DNA of 63,988 nucleotides, the filler included, from Ionaspis alba (lineage: Eukaryota): NCBI GenBank assembly GCA_964255285.1. It is 10 parts of 10 records of this genome, joined end to end, with 100 filler letters (N's around TTAATTAATTAA, not from the genome) between each part and the next. Parts side by side here need not be neighbours in the genome. Positions count along the whole stretch, not along the records: positions 12,892 to 19,220 come from CAXUUL010000928.1; 9 more parts are not named here. One strand, 5' to 3'. The translations under genes were made by a program, and so were the position numbers. Below are positions 13,187 through 42,100 of the stretch, piece after piece. How positions within the stretch are numbered: position 1 is the first letter of the stretch; every line of letters begins with the position of its first letter. The notes below the pieces were generated by a model. That model saw only the letters and a list, made by a program, of their open reading frames with translations. It did no database searches and was not told the DNA's origin.

Positions 13187-14337
13187 ATGCCTTCACTTCG
13201 TTATCAACACAGACGTCCGTTTGGCCAGCAGCAAGCTCTGCTGGAATTGTGAGTACTGTTCATCGAGGATACTTTTCATGGTTGCTGATCCTTTGTTTCT
13301 TTCCAAAGTGGAAGCTTGAAATACCTGTGCCCAGAGGGTGTTTACTTGAGTCTGGTTCCTGGCCATTTCACAACATGGACTGGTGTATTGTTTGTTCGCA
13401 CAGGTATGTAGCGATCACATTCTACGACTTACCTACATTCACTCATCCATACCTTTAGGTCCATATGCACCTGCGATCTTACGCTTCCAAGTTGCTTTCC
13501 CTTCTCGATACCCTAATTCCGCGCCGCTAGTGACTTTCACGAGTGATATCTTTCACCCTCTTGTCTCTCCATTGACGACTTATACACATACTGGGACTTC
13601 AGCTTCAGATACCGTTAGTGCTACTGATGAAGAACGTCTGCCGCCCGGTGGATTCAGCTTGAGGCATGGCTTTCCGACCTGGTTCGAGAAGGAGGAGAAA
13701 GATTCAGGGGGGCTGGAGACATCTCGGGACGTGAAGGTGCCCACTCTTGAAAATAAAGATGGATTCCGCTCTCCCAAGAATGAGGGGACAATGTCACCGT
13801 CCTCGGTAGTCACCGGAGACCCTGTCACATTCAACACGACATCTGCAAAACGCGAACGTCAACACCCAGCTTCAACGTCAAGCACGATCACGATCGTCGA
13901 GGTATTACAATACATGAAGAAATCATTCGAGGACGTTTCTTTTCTGGACGAGCTACCACTAGAAGGCGCTGGCAACACCGGCGCCTGGAAAGCGTGGCGT
14001 GCTTATCTAGAGGCTTCGAGGTCACCGCGGTCCGACACTGATGACGAACGCAATGCAGCCAACACGCCTCAACGTAAACTTGGTGCTATCAGTCAAGCGA
14101 AGCCTTCTAATGACTGGAGCTGGTCTGGGATCTGGGAACAGCGTGTCAGAGAAGGCATCGAGTCAAGTATCTCCAATCCTGTGCTGTATGGAGGCTCAGA
14201 CGGGGACGATCTGGTATGTCTTATCTCTGTCATTTGGTAAAAAGCGCTGATGACTTGGCTAGATCAACTTTCTTGATCTCGATGAAGAGACGATTGAGAC
14301 AATCAAGAAGAATATCATTGAGCATGTACAGCGATAG
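13187..14337 (+). CDS. Ubiquitin-conjugating enzyme variant (UEV), AKTIP/Ft1/crossbronx-like, catalytically inactive; 4 exons
   Basis: Spliced product MPSLRYQH..QALLEF|GSLKYLCPEGVYLSL..WTGVLFVRTG|PYAPAILRFQVAFPSRYPNSAPLVTFTSDIFHPLV..GGFSLRHGF..GDDL|INFLDLDEETIETIKK. UBC fold with HPLV instead of HPN and no catalytic Cys. Confidence 0.85.
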
Positions 14338-14666
14338 TATAAACCTGTCTCCCTTGCTTTTCTCCACTGTCTCCTGTCATGGTGAACGTGGTTTCCATAT
14401 TTACCACGTATTCGACACTCGCTCAGCTCCTTCTCCCATTCTCACGGTTGTTGGCTCCACGATCTCGACCATGGCTTGTTTGGATCGCTCCTTCTCTACA
14501 GCTATGCTAGCTCTCCGACTTATATACTCCGCAGTCCTCGTAACTTGCTTCTTTCTCTATAGCAATTCCATACCATTGAGTTACAGAGCAGATCTCATCC
14601 AGCAACGATTACTCCCTTTTTGGCTATCATCTTGGGCAATACCGTCTCATCGGCTGAAGCCAATTC

Positions 14667-14972
14667 ATGGAAATTGCAGGGCTGACGATCATCGTTTTCT
14701 TATCCATCTGCATTCTCATCGGCATCCTCGTCTTTGTTGGCAGGAAATACGGAACAGCCATTCTCGAATACCTCATCCACAGCTCGATCATCGTATACCT
14801 CTGCAAACGTCTAGATAACTGCTTCGTGTGGACAAGGACGAAGAAGGCACTCGTTGCAGGCTACTTCAAGTTTGTGACAGAACCGGTTGTTGCAAGATAC
14901 AAAGGGACTGAAACTACGGAGCCGGCTTATGAGCGGCTGAAGACACGGATTCCGAGGTTCTCAGAATACTAG
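14667..14972 (+). CDS. Small membrane protein, 101 aa, N-terminal signal-anchor
   Basis: ATG-initiated ORF MEIAGLTIIVFLSICILIGILVFVGRKYG.., with a ~20-residue hydrophobic stretch followed by basic residues. Confidence 0.5.
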   Translation: MEIAGLTIIVFLSICILIGILVFVGRKYGTAILEYLIHSSIIVYLCKRLDNCFVWTRTKKALVAGYFKFVTEPVVARYKGTETTEPAYERLKTRIPRFSEY

Positions 14973-14979
14973 GGACCTC

Positions 14980-15348
14980 ATGATCAAGGGCTCGAAGCAC
15001 GGACGTTCTAGATCAGTTCCAGTTGCACACTATTCTATAGAAAAGGGACTCGTCAAGAAGAAGCCCATCACGTACCCTGGAGCCAGTATATTCGAACCTG
15101 CGCCAGATACCTTTGGTGTCCGAGTACTGCGATTGTTGTCATATCTCGACCCTCTGCTCGTCCTTTCGTACTTACTCCTTTTGAGCTTGAACATTTTGCA
15201 CTGGTTTATACCAAAGACGATACAAAGGTATGCAAAACAGTTCTTTGCCCTTTATCGGCCTTACAAAGCCTTCGAGACCCTACAAATTGCATCGGTTGCT
15301 AATCTACCTTGCCCAGGTACTCTCCTGATCTCGTATCAAGAGCCCTGA
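14980..15348 (+). CDS. Small membrane protein, 122 aa, central hydrophobic segment
   Basis: ATG 7 nt after the previous stop; hydrophobic segment LLSYLDPLLVLSYLLLLSLNILHWFI; SIEKG motif near the N-terminus. Confidence 0.4.
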   Translation: MIKGSKHGRSRSVPVAHYSIEKGLVKKKPITYPGASIFEPAPDTFGVRVLRLLSYLDPLLVLSYLLLLSLNILHWFIPKTIQRYAKQFFALYRPYKAFETLQIASVANLPCPGTLLISYQEP

Positions 15349-15864
15349 TATCCGTCCGAGCAGTACCTTCTTGCTACATCAACCACCCACAGCATCGTCT
15401 ACAGTACGGAACAGTGTTCTTCTTCCTCATTGGTATTATCTACGGCATCCACCTCAGCATCATAAGGTTGGTGGAGAACATCTGTACAGCAGCTCATCTG
15501 TATCAGGATCTGAAGGTATAGCCAAAGTCTCATCACTCGTATAGATACAGACATCCCATCTGACTTTGCTAGTATCGCTGGAACAATTATACCATACGAC
15601 GGCCAACAATCCCCAGGTTTGAGATACAGGATTTACTTCCTGGCAACTTGACGGGCTTCTCACCATACAAGAATATCTTTCCAAGAAAGGAAGAACTCTT
15701 AGAAATACTCCCAAGGATCACAGCTCTTCACTGGGCTGAGCTTTCAATAACGGTATCGACAGCTTTGTACACCTGCTATCTCTACCTTTCTGCGTGGTTC
15801 CAGCAACGTGCTGCGAATAGAAGGAGACGACTGCGTGCCACCCAGCAGCCGGCTATATAGTGGT

Positions 15865-16095
15865 ATGGGTGACCTCTCGACTGGTCTAATTGGTCTCCTA
15901 CTCCTAGTGCCTGTCGTGATTGCTGTAGGAGTGGCCTGTTGTGCTATCAAGTGCTCTGAGTGGCATTTCTATATTACACAAAAAATCACTACCAAGAAGC
16001 ACAAGAGAAACAAGTCCGAAGCTGGTTCGAATACGCAGAATTCTACGAAGAGCGAAGACTCGACCGATTTAGAAAAGGGGATTGCGAGATCCTGA
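15865..16095 (+). CDS. Small single-pass membrane protein, 76 aa
   Basis: MGDLSTGLIGLLLLVPVVIAVGVACCAIK..TTKKHKRNK..STDLEKGIARS: N-terminal TM, basic cluster, and a DLEKG tail common in fungal membrane proteins. Confidence 0.55.
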   Translation: MGDLSTGLIGLLLLVPVVIAVGVACCAIKCSEWHFYITQKITTKKHKRNKSEAGSNTQNSTKSEDSTDLEKGIARS

Positions 16096-16287
16096 AGTGG
16101 GGTTTCCTCCTGTTTCCGGGACTTAGGGCAACGCGGTGCGCGTGACGAAGTCGACATCTGCTATTGTTAGCGCCGGGTATACCCTCCAGGAGAGGATACT
16201 GCGTTCGACTTCTCACTGGACTTTTCAGCTCAGCGGTTCCCCTTTCTCAAAATCCGAGACTACTTCTTTCCTGATACGGCAGCAAAC

Positions 16288-19214
16288 ATGGATTCAGAAA
16301 GTCTAAAATCCTGGAGATCCAGCGAATCAGGTTTGACGGAAAAGCTCACCCCCAAACCTCTGCGCATTATCAAGCGAGATCTCAAGCGTCTTTCCGCTAC
16401 AGCTTTCAGACCTTCATCATCAGCTACTGTCGGAACTTCAATTCTCTCTTTGTCAAATTATGAAGATTTCAATATTCACAACGGCTCCTTTTCCGACCGC
16501 CATGGTCATCACGGGTCTTCGCGTGGATCTGTCAGATCTATGAGTGGCCATTCTACCACACGTGTAATGCCACCGCATCCATCTGGAGACTACAAGCTAA
16601 ACGTACGAAAGACGCGTAGGAGTGACACAGCTGGCTCCATCACGGGTACCGACACTTCGGCTAGCAGGCACGGCGGTTACACTGGTCAATTCCCACCTCA
16701 CACAGCAGATTCTTTCGCGAGCTTGCCTGAGTCTTCTACTTTACCATCTCTTCAAGCTTTTGAGCGCAATTCAAACATCCAGCCTGGCACACAGTTGCGC
16801 AGATCCTTGACTGTCAGCGAATATCCCAAGCTCCACCGTCCACATCCATTCGTTGCTAACTATGGTTCCAATTTCAAGCTTGCCCCAACACCAATTATAG
16901 CTCACGCGCACCGACGTATTGCTAGTGAAAGACCTTCGAACGCTGACGATGGGCCCGCAGCTGAGCTGATTGGATGGTCTAACCTTCCTCAAGCCCCATT
17001 TGCCGATAGTCAGCCATCTCGCAAACTCCGCTTCCTCAATAGAATCGTCAGTGGCCTCAATGTCACTATGAATGCTGGCCAATCCACGCGGGAACGCAGA
17101 GGGCGTGGAGGAAACCCTAGGATACACGCTAGTGGAGAGTCCGGCTTCGAACTAGCCATGGAGGATCGAAACGCGGTCGCTGGCGCTGTACAGCCAACGC
17201 GATCAGCCTTTGAGCCCATTATCAAGACTACCAGAACTACTTCCGTTTCAAGTGATCTTGAAAGTACCATTGGAGCATTCCCCAGCCCACCGAATTCTGG
17301 ATCTGGTCCATCTACCAGAGTGACTTCTCAGAAGACGAATTCATCTTCCACCTTGGCGCATAGCTCCCTGACAATCCCAAAGGAGAAGACCATCATGGGC
17401 GCAGAGCTTACGATCTTCCTCGAAAAGGATAGGCTTGATGAGGATGGCGCCAAACATCTGTTCGCAGCTGTCGAAATCAGGGGTACTTCTCGCGCAACTG
17501 TCAACGGTGCCAACGCGTCTGAAGGCAGCTGTCGCTTGGATATCGCGATCGTCGTTGACAACTCGTGAGTCATCCGTGTCAATTTCTTGCCAGCATTAGC
17601 TAAGGTAACGAATCTAGTGTTTTCACTTCACCAGCAGCCCTAATGGCATGTTGCGAAACGGTCTTCTTCCTTGCATCAAATCTAGATGTCGGCCGCGACC
17701 GTATCGGTATCTTATGTACTAGCAGCTCCAATGCCGGAGCTGATGAGGGCCATGAAGTCTTCCCTTTCGGTACTATCAATTTGCGTCAGACTCGTCAAGC
17801 CCTTGATTCCATTGTCTCCAATACGACCAAAGCGCCTCTAGACTATCTGACGAAAACTATCAACAAGGCCAGGAAGATGCTAGAGCATTCTTTCCATGGA
17901 GACGAGGCTTACAGGAAGAAGCACAAGACTATTGGGCATGTTCTTGTCTTTACTGCGAATCCTGGAGTTGTGCCAATGGAGGTCTTCAGCCAAAAGGAGA
18001 TTCAAGCACATTTCATCTGCCCCGGCAGCCTCCCATGGAGAGGCAGTCAAGTCTGTACCCCTTACGGATGGCAGCTTTCTCAGCGAGATGTGCACCAGCC
18101 GTGGTCAACTATTCGAAGTTGCAAGAAGGACCAAGACAACGTCCGCAACGGGCTGCTTGAACTGATTGCGGAAGCTCGCTTTGGTCTAGTCTCCGAGAGA
18201 ATGTCAGATCTGACACTCTCCTTCAAAGCGGGACCTCAGTGCACAGTCGACGGCATCATGGGACGCGTCCAATTTCCTTATCTTGCACCCGGCCAAGTCT
18301 TGACCACTCTGGTCGGAATCAAGCTCGGCGACATTCAGGCAGGAACAGCCATGCTTGCCAATTTCCCGCAGACTCCCCGAAGCCCGTCTGGCGCTATCGA
18401 TCTTCCTACAGAACTTGACGTGATTCTCGGAGACCAGATGGCGACCATCTTGACAGCGACTCTAGTCTATAAGCACGCTGCTCTACCTGAAGGAACCATG
18501 TGCACCATCTCAGCCGAAGGAAGAATTCCAGTTCCTGAAGACAATCCTCTACCAAATCTCATGCCACAGCCTTCCACAGATTTCAACGTCGAGCCTGGCG
18601 ACTATAGCCAAGAAGAAGTCGAGAAACGCTTGATTTACTACTTTGCGACCGAAAGGGAGGTCAAGAATGCACTGAACATCTTCCGCAAGCACTTCGGAGA
18701 GGGTAACGCACGTTGTTTCTGTCAAGACTATCTCAGGACCGTCACCGCGGAGCTCAAGTACCAGCGACGCATGATCGAGATTTTCGAGATGGCAGAAGAG
18801 CAGGCTGCAAGCGTCACGAATCCCTCGCCGCGCAGCGTGGTGAAACCTCGCGATCGTCCAGCCAACATCGAGAACCACAATCCTATCGACTGGTGTCGTC
18901 CAGCCCCCGCCGACATCACTCCTCTAAGGATCATTGAGACTAATCATAACGTTGGTCAGCTGAGGCATGAACCGTCTACAGAGTCCATTGACCCGGCACC
19001 AGGCTTCTGGAGAAGTCAGAGAATGCGAACCAATGGTCCCGGCGGCAAGAAGCTTCTCAAGAAGAAGAGCTTCCATAACGAAGCTAATGAGGAGACGCTT
19101 CTGCAGATCCGTGATGATGCGTTGAAGAACAAGAGGAGCGTTGGTCAGGATACGCTGCGCAGCTTGACTTTCCGTGGTGGTCGAGGGATTGAGAATGTTG
19201 CTCCGTGGCTTTAA
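16288..19214 (+). CDS. Hypothetical protein with disordered N-terminus and degenerate von Willebrand factor A-like domain, 2 exons (16288-17564, 17618-19214)
   Basis: Intron 17565-17617 (GTGAGT..TAG) joins LFAAVEIRG..LDIAIVVDNS|VFTSPAALMACCETVFFLASNL..DRIGIL, resembling the vWA beta1/MIDAS start. C-terminus ALKNKRSVGQDTLRSL..ENVAPWL. Confidence 0.75.
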
Positions 19215-36916: not shown

Positions 36917-39168
36917 CCCCTTGAACCACTCGAAAATCTTCATTTCATCTGGCTTGTTGGTTCTGGAGGATAGCTGGATATTCTCGCAGAGTCTACTCTA
37001 CTTGCTGTATCTCCGATGAACACAAAGTGACTATGAGCCAGTAAGAACATTTCGCATGGGATGAAAATTCTTCTCCTGCATATCGCAGGATTTGTGTGAC
37101 CGTGATAGACATCTCTCAGTCAGCAGCATGAGAAAAGCCTGTGACTCGGCAAAACGTTGGATCGAGTCTTTCTCCAACGGTGGCGCGAAACAGACCCAAC
37201 CATCGATCTCTTCGTCAAGGGGGCGTTCTTCTCCCCAATCTTCACAAGACAGTTCTTAAGTCGTCCACTCTTTGATTGGTGCTTCTCTATCTTCCTCAAT
37301 TGCTTTGAGAACAGTACGACCCCGAATTGAGCGATGGGGTGTGATACGAGGTACAGGCACAATGGGCTCTTGCATACTGATTTCCCACTTATCGATTGTG
37401 TATCGACTACCGTGCGTCAGGCACGAGCGTTTTATGCATGAAGGTGCAGGATGTCACTTTTGTTCATGCAGCCACGCTGTCAGAGAAGCATAACCATAGG
37501 CTGACTTCTTTTTTGTTCAGTCCACGATGCATTCAATGGTCTTCGTCCCTTGGTACAGAATCAAAGAGTGTGACGATATCCAACTCTTCTGTTTCTCGAT
37601 TCAGGTCGTCTTTGGGGACAACAACAACTCCAATAATAATGATCAACTAATACCTAATCCAACCACCCCCATCCCAGCAGTCATCTCGGGGGCTTGATCG
37701 GGAGCGAGTTCTCCCCCCAAAGCTTATTTCCTCTTTAGCGCACGGTATTCCTGACTTCGATTTCCGAGGGCGCCACTCACAATTCTAGCTCGATCCGTTT
37801 TCTTCGCCGGCGTTGCACCTAGACACATGCCATCGAACTCCTTTTCCGATTTTTCGTTATTGAAGGATCACTGTGAATAGAGCAACTCCCATGCTCTGGG
37901 TATGGGCACCGTAGTGAGCATCCAGAGGAGCTCAGACAAGCCGACTATCATTCTAAACTTGCACGGTACACATGAAGAACAGCCATCACAACACCACATT
38001 TTCAGTGCACACGCCTCCCCAAGACCATGATCATCCGTAACCCGAACAGGCCAACATTCACAGACCCCCTTCCCATCACGAACCACGGCTCTCATCACCA
38101 ATCCCCTCATCCGAAAAAAATTCCACTCCATCCCGTCCCCATCACCTGGGCCAACGACTCCACAAACACCAGCCCTGCAAACTCAAAAAAACCACGCTTC
38201 CCCGAAGAAAAGTACTAGCAACAAATCAGGACGAGATAACCCGATTTTCTACAGTCCTGGCCCGATTTCATCATTTCAAGGCCTCAAATCCGGTCGCTAT
38301 GAAGAACCATGGGACCGAGCTCGAGTCGCCACCCTCACTTGCACGGACGACGTAGATACAATAGGTAACGAAGAAACCAGAAGAAAACATCATCGTGCAG
38401 AACCCGAACGCGTGCCTACCCGCGCGGCTCCTCCGTGGCAATCACCACATATTCATTATTATTAACATGCATCTCGCCCATCTCCACAAACCCAANNNNN
38501 NNNNNNNNNNNNNNNNNNNNNNNNNNNNNNNNNNNNNNNTTAATTAATTAANNNNNNNNNNNNNNNNNNNNNNNNNNNNNNNNNNNNNNNNNNNNTGGAA
38601 CGCTTCGGCGCATATTCTGCCTCTTGTTCGATGTATCGTGGGACCACCCTGCTCTTTCCCATAGGATAAAACGTTATATCATAGGTACATGATTCTGCAG
38701 CGTCGCAATCGTCACTCTTTCTTAGCTTCTGCTTCTTTTTCCTACTTATGACACTTATACAACAACTTCCCACAATCCTACCCATACACCAACGTTGTCG
38801 GTGCAACTTACGGTCGGGACTGGGCCGCCCGAGAAAAGAACAGTAACTCCCCCTTGTTGCAAATCTTAGCGTGCCTCTATCATCCTTGAAAGCCAAATCC
38901 ACACCTCACCTTTCCCCAACTTGTTCAAATCACCCAAGAAGGAAACGGGACCAATCTCTTATTCAAAGCCTGAGGCTTGCTATCAAACACTATCCAGCAC
39001 TATACCCGTTCTATCGACGCCAAACCAAAGTCTTCGACCTCCTTTTCCCTTTCTCGACTCCACAAAGCCTTGGGATAGCTTCCCCTCCCCTGGTCAGGAT
39101 CTTTCCTCTATGCGGCTGGCTATCATGAATCACCGCCATCGCCATTGAAACGGTGGACCGTGTGTGCC

Positions 39169-42100
39169 ATGGAGCATTCACACCCTCCCATCACGCCAGG
39201 CTCGAGCCAGGACTTTGCCGTCTCTTCACCCACAGTTCACACCGTCACGCGATTGAAGGCTGGCAAGCCCGCTCAGATTGACGTCTCCTCCTTCTCGGCG
39301 CTGCAGTCGCAAAAGACCAAAGCCAATACTCCCTCGCCTGTGCGTAGAAAGCCCTTACCATCTTCCGCCTCTCCTCCTCCTCTGGTCGTACCAAGATTCT
39401 CTAGTGGGGGACGGGTCGTGGCAGTTGGAGTGGAAGGGTTCAACGACAATCGATCAACGACACAGGTCGAAAATCATCCCCCTCTCACGTCACATCGTCC
39501 ACCATGGCTACCAGAACCCAGCTCCTCTCCTACCCTCGTGGTGCGAGATCTTGACCAGTAAGCAATCCTTGCGCCATCTTGACCTTCACATCTTCGAGTA
39601 AGACCGGCACTGACTCTATGACCGTGATAGATTCCCTCGCGGTCATTCTCCTCAAGTCCCACAAAGTCCTGACCGTACTCCCTTTGCTGATTTGCCTGCC
39701 GACCAAGCACGGCAAATTCTACAGAATCTCGATAGCGTCACCGAAGTATCCTCGATACCAGGCCATTCACGGATCGCAAGCGAACCATCTGATGTTCCTA
39801 CACTAAAAAGCAGGGCGCGGCCTGTTCACCAGACCCAGCGGTCTACCACAATGCCTATGCGTGGTGCCTCTGGACCTCCTCCCCTCCAGCTCAATGGCGA
39901 ACCACGCATACCCTCACACCGTGCGAACGGATCCAACGAGTCAAATCCTCCTTCAAGATCGAACATGCTCACTAGCTTTTTCGGCTGGAAAGGCGCGGCG
40001 TCCTCACCTGTTGCTGAATCCTCACCAACAACAATATCAGATAGGAGTCACTCACCCCTTCCGTCCCCACGGGTTCCACCGTCGCCATTGGGTTTCCCTT
40101 CTTCTATAAAGGCAATACCTCAGATGATAGACGTTACCAAAGCAAATGGTGCTCAGAGGGGCTCGTATTTCGGTACTGCAGGCGCACCTCCTGCGCCACC
40201 CACACCCGCTATGACGAAAAAAGTGGAAGAACTGGAGGAAGAGCTCCGGGAAATCAGTGCGGAATTGGCAGGTTCGATCCGCAGAGAGATGGAATTGGAG
40301 GATCAAGTGGAGCGATTACAGTCGGAAGGTCCTCAAGCACCTGTCTTGAGTCGAAGAACAAGTGACTACTTTTCGGACTCTGGCACTAGTTCGGTCAGAT
40401 ACCAAAATAGTGAAGCAGATGGGAGTAAGTTGGAGGATCTGGAAAAGCAGAAGCGGAAATCGGACCAAGAGAAGGCGCAATTGAAGGTCGATGTGTCTCA
40501 AAAGCTTCAGGAGGAGCGGAGCCGAAGAACGCAGATGGAGGCTCATATAAAGAGTCTGGAGGAACACATCTATAACGTGGGTAACACAGATCTTGGCCAG
40601 ATGAAAGTTCAACTAACATCCAATGCAGATGGAGCAGAACCAAGGAAAGACAGCAAACGCGCCTGCCCGAATTCAAGAGCTAGAGAACGCACTCGAGGAC
40701 AACCGCCGGCGGATGACCGAAGAAAGGCGGCAGAAGGAGAACTATGAGGATCTGCTCAAGGCTTTACGGGTAGAGGAAGCACGGCACCGGAACGAGAGGG
40801 ATAATCTTAGGGACGAGGTTGTTCCTCAACTTCGAGCTCGAGTCGAGGGTCTAGAGGCGGAAGCTGCGGAATTCCAGAAACTCACCTATGAGAATGCGAG
40901 GATGCAGCAGGAACTGCAATCTCTCAGGAGCATGAATGCGTTCTCTCCCTCCTCGCGCATCGGTATGATTGCGGAGGAAGGATCTTCGTCTTCACCTACA
41001 ACTCCTGTACCAAAAAGCGCTGGACTGGCAAGATCTGCCTCACTAGCCCGAGGCACGCCATCAGCTACTGGACTGGCAAGGTCTGGCTCATTATCGCGAT
41101 CGAACTCCGTATCCAAAGACCGAGAGTCTCGAGAATCACTCGCAGATCGAGTCAAAGAGATTGAAATGCAGCGAGACGCGCTACACCGAGCATTGAAAAG
41201 TTTATTAGAACGACAAAAGTACCAAGGCCTAGAACATGAAAAGCGAGTCAGAGCATTAGAGCAAGAGCGAGATAGAGCATTAGAGTCTCATTCGCCACGG
41301 AGAAGAGGCTACGAAAAAGAAGTGAAAGATTTGCGGTACGAAATCAATGATCTCCGGCGGCGAGCAGACGAGGCTCTAGAACAAAAGTGGCAATGCGAAA
41401 AAGGTCTCGGAGGATTGAAAAAAGATCTCGACAGAGCTGAACAAGAAACTGGCTCCCTCCGAGCTCTCCTCCACGAAAACGACATCCTAATCCCCGATCT
41501 CCCCACCAAATCCTCTCCCACCGACATCCACATCGACACACACGCCACCTCCGCCTCGCTCGAGCGCGCCTACAAAGAACTGCAAGAAACCCAAGCTCTC
41601 TCCATCTCCCGCCTGCGCGAACTCAAAGGCCTCACCCCCTCCAGCACCGACGACGCCAAAACCAGCGAAACAATGGACATGCTCCTAAAAACTATGTCCA
41701 ACGCCGAAGCCGAGCGGGACCTCGCCCAAAAACAAGCCGCGACCTACCGCGCCCAAGCCGCCTCCCTGCAAGACACGACTGCCTTCCACGAAACCGAGAA
41801 CGCGGGTCTCGCGGCCCAGTTACGTGCTTCCGCTGACCGCGTCACGGCCTTGTCGTCTCAAGTCCGGTTCCAGCTCGAGTCAAACGGCGTGCTGCGTACC
41901 CGTCTTGCGGAAGCGGTCGGCCGTGGCGAGAGAGAGCAGAAGGCGTCGGCGACGAGAATCAATAATATGCAGGGGAAACTCAAAGCGCTCGAAGACCGCC
42001 TCATGGCCGCGCAACAGCATTCCGAAGAAGCGGTCTTGCTGCACGAAGACGAGGTCAAAGGCCTCCGCGACAACACCAATCCCCAGCTCCAACGCCTCCG

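Follow-up and report, generated by a model that had tools for sequence, protein, structure and literature searches.

A short interval of the Ionaspis alba genome (NCBI GenBank assembly GCA_964255285.1), lying between a UEV-like gene and a vWA-like gene, appears from its sequence to be the front part of one scanned messenger RNA (mRNA) with several translated open reading frames (ORFs), a reading to which we give a probability of about 0.55. The interval belongs to a stretch of 63,988 nucleotides (nt), filler included, which was analysed as a whole and is referred to as the window; all positions count along it. Most likely three upstream cistrons, here called B, C and F, precede the start codon of the vWA-like gene on the + strand. 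The one-transcript reading builds on a desert of ATG triplets, on start contexts that go from weak to strong and on upstream ORFs poor in AUG, as in leaky-scanning bicistrons. In its fullest form the proposal is a natural four-cistron nuclear mRNA, from which graded leaky scanning through a 1.6-kb AUG desert would yield three membrane proteins together with the large vWA-like protein, fixing the proportions of a membrane complex; this form is tentative, and we would sooner bet against it than for it. We predict from sequence the single transcript, its start, the splicing and that C and F are translated; any functional link of the three membrane proteins to the vWA-like protein, e.g. as a membrane anchor or partner set in fixed proportions, would be an inference as well.

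ATG depletion and start codon contexts

Eight ATGs are found on the + strand between the UEV-like stop codon and the vWA-like start codon, at 14379, 14471, 14504, 14667, 14929, 14980, 15230 and 15865. For this segment (14337-16287) dinucleotide-preserving shuffles gave 25.3 +/- 4.9, and eight or fewer were reached in none of 2000 shuffles. The depletion is strand-specific, with the reverse complement CAT occurring 38 times against 36.1 expected. Of all ATG-free gaps on the + strand of the window, the longest (15230-15865, 635 nt) and the third longest (15865-16288, 423 nt) lie side by side here. The 1621 nt from 14667 to 16287 hold 5 ATGs, whereas 837 background tiles from both strands average 28.2 and never have fewer than 12; no other of the 64 trinucleotides is as depleted as ATG (z = -3.4).

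From 14505 to 16287 the ATGs are the starts of B, C and F, that of a 3-codon ORF, and the one at 15230, which lies in the predicted first intron of C. In the spliced RNA, given the predicted introns, only three AUGs would be left from the start of C up to and including that of the vWA-like gene, each of which opens one ORF. The desert stops at the vWA-like ATG, and 14 further ATGs follow within the next 1300 nt. Avoidance of AUG on one strand and in all three frames over coding sequence has a well-known cause, namely 40S subunits that cross the sequence by scanning towards a downstream start. This 1.6-kb desert ending at a strong start is a new observation compared with an earlier note on the same DNA, which had described the interval as a chain of six small ORFs.

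The start contexts along the chain are, from 5' to 3', ttcATGg (B), cttATGa (mini-ORF), ctcATGa (C), ggtATGg (F) and aacATGg (vWA-like). Hence the base at -3 is T, C and C, then G, and finally A, and the last two starts have G at +4. The contexts were judged by the general rule of A/G at -3 and G at +4, which is not a species-specific matrix (PMC11892635; this paper and those cited below are used in excerpt). Neither AATAAA nor ATTAAA was found in 14200-16400.

Other triplets deviate in the opposite direction in 14667-16287. On the + strand TAC is strongly enriched, with 42 occurrences where the tiles average 17.0 (z = 4.4), and ATA, TAT and ATC are also high, ATA being otherwise a rare isoleucine codon in the window with a relative synonymous codon usage (RSCU) of 0.41. 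The excess of these four triplets might reflect replacement of ATG. Elsewhere in the window a + strand ATG-free stretch of 362 nt (38748-39110) ends at an ATG near the start of an open frame at 39079-39561; this is probably an ordinary long 5' untranslated region (UTR), and serves as a yardstick for the 1.6-kb desert.

Cistron B is conserved

Two of ten candidates matched B (E = 3.5e-27 and 7.6e-26); they are clusters that together hold five sequences from five contigs. Each relative is exactly 101 amino acids (aa) long, is 55-60% identical to B without any insertion or deletion, and has one methionine. In the alignment all six sequences agree at 52 of the 101 columns, among them the first three residues and a C-terminal block. 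By this comparison B is clearly a real gene, conserved at the protein level.

Hydrophobicity was measured as the 19-residue Kyte-Doolittle mean, and 319 open frames of 60-135 codons from elsewhere in the window were used as controls; 8 of these (2.5%) reach 2.0 and none reaches 2.9. The maximum for B is 3.21. As the structure model of B is one long helix (residues 3-79, mean pLDDT (predicted local distance difference test) 73.5), the protein is modelled as a bitopic membrane protein, and its family is an undescribed one, without a name in any source searched. No Pfam family was above the cut-off for any of the pieces of B, C and F (best E = 0.057). The profile search of PDB with the B alignment gave a transmembrane (TM) helix of ATP synthase subunit b at noise level as its best match (E 0.028), and the best Atlas score of 0.83 was below the lead threshold; the Atlas and PDB matches are generic single-pass membrane look-alikes only. 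A metagenome scan with the B alignment gave no matches.

A search for repeats returned one weak 21-nt pair only, a direct repeat inside B (14686-14706 and 14785-14805) with 76% identity, in frame and 99 nt apart, which may be due to chance. A second haplotype or strain is represented in DNA contigs of this species, and 30 differences from it are listed over 13300-19200. These cluster at 13360-13453, 14406-14468, 14685-14741, 15247-15326 and 16736-16806, with long identical stretches between. Four of them fall within B, where they give T>A, L>F, V>I and one synonymous change.

Cistron C and its predicted introns

Removal of two predicted introns joins 14980-15227, 15317-15515 and 15573-15860 into 735 nt, i.e. 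244 codons with one terminal stop (Table 1). An unbiased search for the longest spliced coding sequence (CDS) in the interval returned exactly this model, and the longest on the minus strand had 70 codons. In 500 first-order Markov shuffles a spliced CDS of at least this length occurred once.

Intron 1 holds the sole ATG of the reference sequence between 14980 and 15865 (at 15230), and the only ATG that the second haplotype adds (15287) likewise lies inside it. Of the eight haplotype differences at 15247-15326 six fall in intron 1, and its GT, CTAAT and CAG signals are kept. The intron is thus independently supported, by the clustering of differences inside it, by the retained signals and by the location of both ATGs. 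For intron 2 the frame is preserved and the downstream open frame begins exactly at the acceptor; if it were left unspliced, C would end at 15519-15521 after 150 codons. Both introns score as strongly non-coding (-0.43 for intron 1 and -1.02 for intron 2), and the flanking exons do not. We therefore regard C as a candidate 244-codon protein with two clear hydrophobic segments, a model supported by the splice-joined frame, by the two TM-like segments, each of which scores at a level reached by 2.5% of control frames, and by the intron scores.

Introns that would bridge B and C, C and F, A and B (A being the ORF that overlaps B from upstream), or F and the vWA-like frame were also considered, and had poor donors or no branch point. 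A single fusion gene of B, C and F was rejected, there being no consensus intron to bridge either B and C or C and F. The collection of introns from ORF junctions held too few cases for an organism-specific splice matrix.

Cistron F and the excess of hydrophobic segments

The Kyte-Doolittle maximum of F is 2.91, a level reached by none of the 319 control frames. With a coding log-odds of 0.081 it stands out from chance open frames at p ~0.03, and it has no internal ATG. An exact look-up of the F sequence, which covers identical entries only, found none in the protein collection. What speaks for C and F as real proteins is hydrophobicity and, for F, the coding score.

Four of the eight + strand frames of 60-135 codons in the interval reach 2.0 (3.21, 2.09, 2.13 and 2.91), as does one of the seven minus-strand frames. 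Simulated chance open frames have the same 2% rate of hydrophobic segments as the controls. The excess of TM-like segments in the interval is far above chance and is not a composition artefact. On the minus strand, where ATG-started ORFs within the interval are at most 68 aa, an open frame opposite the tail of F (15969-16160) carries a hydrophobic segment of 2.24 with a low coding score; this frame probably mirrors the sequence of F.

Among the measures of coding potential, the RSCU score of synonymous codons had no discriminating power (0.025 +/- 0.053 in frame vs 0.009 +/- 0.055 off frame) and simple codon log-odds were weak. We used a 3-periodic Markov score and judged it against chance open frames, in preference to all non-coding chunks. 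Against the chunks it was supportive; against chance open frames it was not significant for the C exons.

ORF A and the putative leader

The most upstream frame, A, overlaps B in another frame and has a coding log-odds of -0.15 to -0.18, so that 90-98% of chance open frames score higher. In the overlap, which is the 3' third of A, all four haplotype differences change the A-frame residue. A hydrophobic segment of 2.11 counts for a coding A and against the non-coding reading. Judged by its sequence A is probably spurious and non-coding, located upstream of or at the transcription start, which we infer to lie within 14505-14666, downstream of the TATATA at 14521.

Table 1. Features predicted between the UEV-like gene and the end of the vWA-like gene.
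Feature	Position	Strand	Remarks
ORF 1 (A)	14471..14818	+	within longer ATG ORF 14216-14818; overlaps B in another frame
Putative 5' leader	14505..14666	+	ATG-free; TATATA 14521-14526; CCAAT 14660
Cistron B (ORF 2)	14667..14972	+	101 aa; predicted N-terminal TM helix, conserved C-terminal tail; start ttcATGg, weak
Mini-ORF	14929..14940	+	3 codons, cttATGa, in the end of B; sole internal ATG of B in any frame
C exon 1	14980..15227	+	start ctcATGa, weak; basic N-terminus; first hydrophobic segment, Kyte-Doolittle 2.09
C intron 1	15228..15316	+	predicted; 89 nt; GTATGC, CTAAT 18 nt from end, CAG
C exon 2 (ORF 4)	15317..15515	+	without ATG; second hydrophobic segment, Kyte-Doolittle 2.13
C intron 2	15516..15572	+	predicted; 57 nt; GTATAG, CTGAC 13 nt from end, TAG
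C exon 3 (ORF 5)	15573..15860	+	without ATG; weak third hydrophobic segment, 1.09; RRRR tail, stop
Cistron F (ORF 6)	15865..16095	+	76 aa, putative bitopic membrane protein; start ggtATGg, intermediate
Spacer	16096..16287	+	192 nt, ATG-free, before vWA-like start
vWA-like gene	16288..19214	+	last ORF of proposed unit; start context aacATGg, optimal

Three upstream cistrons instead of six

The earlier note had listed six consecutive + strand ORFs, each with one hydrophobic segment, as a set of membrane microproteins. All six frames are present where they were placed, but they are not six independent genes, and only four of them begin with ATG: ORF 1 (ATG 14471), ORF 2 (14667-14972, 101 aa), ORF 3 (14980-15348, 122 aa) and ORF 6 (15865-16095, 76 aa). 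The frames of ORF 4 (open 15303-15521) and ORF 5 (open 15573-15860) have no methionine codon, and therefore cannot be independent cistrons. The observation is hence partly confirmed, and most likely the upstream cistrons are B, C spliced from ORFs 3-5, and F. Segments beyond chance were indeed found, with the exception of the fifth (LSITVST...), which at 1.09 is unremarkable. The short distances were borne out, with gaps of 7 nt (14973-14979) and 4 nt (15861-15864) from stop to start within the chain, 133 nt between the UEV-like stop at 14335-14337 and the first frame, and 192 nt between the last frame and the vWA-like ATG at 16288.

The statement that there are no clear introns was wrong, as introns at 15228-15316 and 15516-15572 are predicted to join ORFs 3-5 in frame. 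The note had also named a decayed, frameshifted gene for a polytopic membrane protein as a case that would speak against it. This is not what we find, since the start and the stop of B are conserved in five of five relatives and ORFs 3-5 are joined by introns and not frameshifted. Its interpretation, a polycistronic transcript or a very large leader of upstream ORFs (uORFs), is partly supported: the ATG desert, the context gradient and the conservation of ORF 2 agree with it, and the number of units does not.

Proposed mechanism

In the proposed mechanism the transcript would begin in 14505-14666 and carry B, C, F and the vWA-like ORF. A 40S subunit would meet the B start first (14667, pyrimidine at -3), where some would initiate and give the 101-aa protein and others would leak past. 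Subunits that leak past would then encounter two further weak starts, that of the 3-codon ORF (14929) and that of C (14980). C would be spliced at intron 1 and probably at intron 2 to encode the 244-codon protein, and mature C would be without further AUG in any frame, so that subunits passing its start could reach that of F (15865; G at -3 and +4). Past the AUG-free F (231 nt) and the 192-nt spacer, the remaining subunits would arrive at the optimal vWA-like start (16288; A at -3, G at +4). We envisage mainly leaky scanning, and the 7-nt and 4-nt spacers would also permit termination-reinitiation.

Weighing of the alternatives

Several observations weigh against this mechanism or against parts of it. 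The start context of ORF A is strong to optimal (accATGg), and scanning ribosomes would be caught there if A were transcribed. At 15854 another TATATA is a possible independent promoter of the vWA-like gene; in that case the last 423 ATG-free bases would be an ordinary 5' UTR and the unit would shrink to B, C and F. Polycistronic transcripts detected by Iso-Seq in Zymoseptoria tritici are of low abundance and possibly rare read-through, as far as the excerpt of that study goes (10.1101/2023.04.26.537486), and therefore a sequence signature alone is no proof of a translated polycistron.

Other such points concern C. A spliced CDS of 244 codons was reached in 39 of 1000 second-order Markov simulations, which keep the low stop-codon content, and with strict donors the 150-codon form of C has p = 0.16; the length statistic for C is suggestive and not decisive. 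The donor of intron 2 (GTATAG) deviates from the consensus at +5, and with this weak donor intron 2 is less certain than intron 1. Against chance open frames the coding p-values of C exons 1-3 are 0.37-0.50, 0.13-0.19 and 0.43-0.56. When exon 1 was compared with longer proteins none of 199 candidates matched, and the 122-aa ORF 3 matched only itself among 15 candidates. A search with exon 3 against 1.84 billion representatives gave only one spurious match, P0001 (890 aa, E = 1.6e-07, 11 stretches). We rejected it as a homologue, as it is a translated satellite repeat of about 11 tandem copies with a unit of about 68 residues, and its score is inflated by summing over the repeats.

The best surviving alternative is that B, C, F and the vWA-like gene are separately transcribed overlapping genes, each with its promoter inside the gene upstream, and that their 5' UTRs run over upstream CDS, hence the avoidance of ATG. 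The TATATA at 15854 sits 434 nt upstream of the vWA-like ATG, as expected for this alternative, and the ATG-free stretch of about 360 nt at 38748-39110 shows that a likely gene start elsewhere in the window can be preceded in this way. Overlapping same-strand UTRs in a compact ascomycete genome, with polycistronic reads in low abundance, have also been described (10.1101/2023.04.26.537486). On the other hand, for the 735 nt of mature C to be ATG-free on this account the F mRNA would have to start upstream of the C start, which makes it effectively a shared transcript. Core promoters outside coding sequence would not fit into gaps of 7 nt and 4 nt, and a weak-to-strong context gradient is unexpected for independent mRNAs (control ratios near 1 in the excerpt of PMC11892635). 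We consider separate genes unlikely.

Ranked next, and unlikely as well, is the possibility that only B and the vWA-like gene are functional and that C and F are long uORFs, regulatory or fortuitous, in a partly spliced leader. It would account for the lack of a C homologue in the searches with exon 1, exon 3 and the 122-aa ORF, for C exon coding scores that equal those of chance open frames and for the p = 0.039 of the spliced ORF under the stricter null; frames as long as F often arise by chance, shuffled sequences having a longest unspliced ORF of 78 codons on average. It is at odds with the C segments of 2.09 and 2.13, which 2.5% of the controls reach, with the F segment of 2.91, which none of the 319 reaches, with the coding p ~0.03 of F and with the strongly non-coding scores of both candidate introns next to exons that do not score so. 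The proposed frame is also the best of six in all five pieces (B, C exons 1-3 and F), though the score favours open frames. An ordinary leader of short regulatory uORFs is not what is seen here, given the 52 invariant columns over the 101 aa of B and the 150-244 codons that C would have.

That the frames are unrelated random ORFs in intergenic DNA or in a 3' UTR of B is very improbable: ORFs of 76-122 codons are not rare, and the longest ORF had at least 122 codons in 7% of shuffles, but chance is excluded for B by its conservation and is very unlikely for the desert, an ATG depletion that is strand-specific and the extreme of the window, while the excess of hydrophobic segments is large and there is no selective reason to avoid ATG in a 3' UTR or an untranscribed spacer.

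Comparison with known systems

The arrangement in one scanned mRNA that we favour has counterparts outside the fungi. In rice tungro bacilliform virus ORFs I-III are translated by leaky scanning, with tiny gaps or overlaps, about a kilobase that is poor in AUG and weak upstream starts; this is a viral pregenomic RNA and not a cellular gene. Leaky-scanning bicistrons of green algae have a weak Kozak context at ORF 1, and AUG is under-represented in ORF 1 and in the regions between the ORFs; ORF 1 examples include the small membrane proteins TOM22 and OST4 (PMC11892635). Polycistronic nuclear mRNAs of green algae are also reported in PMC7896298. Like these mRNAs, the present unit lies on one strand, has short spacers, weak upstream contexts and a stronger last one, is scarce in AUG upstream and has predicted small membrane proteins upstream. 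Unlike the algal cases, which mostly have two cistrons, it is fungal, would have three upstream cistrons before a large last ORF, and one of its upstream cistrons would be spliced. Further, the excerpted texts describe the algal loci as highly conserved, whereas C has no relative found and the fungal unit is known from sequence. In Drosophila the upstream ORFs of stoned and Snapin are AUG-deficient with a Kozak context off the consensus, and the downstream ORFs are reached by leaky scanning (PMC11892635). Unlike the fungal unit these loci are from an animal, have two cistrons and encode unrelated proteins.

Among filamentous ascomycetes a natural dicistron with a 26-bp spacer is described in Glarea lozoyensis (PMC4471562). 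The 9-bp IGG6 spacer, which was engineered from it, allows reinitiation up to a fourth ORF in yeasts and expression of a bicistronic GFP in Aspergillus nidulans (PMC10352335). The likeness lies in a multi-ORF mRNA of a filamentous ascomycete with tiny spacers (26 and 9 bp there, 7 and 4 nt here), in the lack of AATAAA or ATTAAA between the ORFs and in introns inside cistrons. Those cases are polyketide synthase (PKS) and nonribosomal peptide synthetase (NRPS) genes of secondary metabolism, for which the authors favour reinitiation, unlike the small membrane proteins proposed here. In the excerpts of these papers depletion of AUG in the upstream ORFs is not reported, and the AUG desert here points to leaky scanning.

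The read-through RNAs seen by Iso-Seq in Pezizomycotina resemble the present case in that adjacent same-strand genes of compact ascomycete genomes share one RNA (10.1101/2023.04.26.537486). They are low in abundance against single-gene transcripts, they mostly involve genes with overlapping transcripts, and the excerpt of the study describes no sequence adaptation, unlike the fungal locus here, which looks adapted in its AUG depletion and context gradient. In a limited literature search, based on excerpts, we found no AUG-depleted multi-cistron unit in a filamentous fungus, and a report in print is possible.

Flanking genes and other observations

The window is eukaryotic and by its sequence looks like DNA of a filamentous ascomycete. 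Its introns are short and carry GT..CTRAY..YAG signals, and its housekeeping genes include those for a CPSase small chain, a RasGEF, an M16 peptidase and a DNA polymerase subunit B. The gene 5' of the interval encodes a UBC/UEV-type domain (PF00179, E = 1.1e-07), and by reading of the sequence its TAG stop follows a 49-nt intron.

The protein encoded from 16288 matched no Pfam family, VWA models included. As leads only, its nearest Atlas cluster is mostly from Ascomycota, and scores were 0.97 for an Ascomycota hypothetical family and at most 0.93 for VWA families. Atlas features point to VWA families, which makes the label vWA-like plausible without proving it. A 53-nt intron of the gene (17565-17617, GTGAGT..CTAAG..TAG) directly follows the D-N-S of a possible MIDAS-like (metal ion-dependent adhesion site) motif, and the residues after D-N-S do not complete a canonical DxSxS. 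A metagenome scan with the C-terminal ORF of this gene gave no matches. We found no paralogy among the ORFs of the interval or with the rest of the window, and an Rfam search gave no match at E up to 1.

Significance

Translated polycistronic nuclear mRNAs are still exceptional in eukaryotes, and the functional fungal cases that we found, in the excerpts used, are the PKS and NRPS dicistrons. B adds a small conserved membrane-protein family that has no name in the sources searched. One-strand ATG deserts with a strong start codon at their end offer a simple criterion by which more such units could be sought genome-wide, and the locus calls for some caution in annotation, as two of the six microprotein ORFs are exons according to the predicted splicing. 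If true, the locus would provide a natural case, open to experimental test, of a filamentous fungus translating several ORFs from one mRNA, and would amount to a eukaryotic operon-like unit by which the components of a membrane-associated complex are made in fixed proportions.

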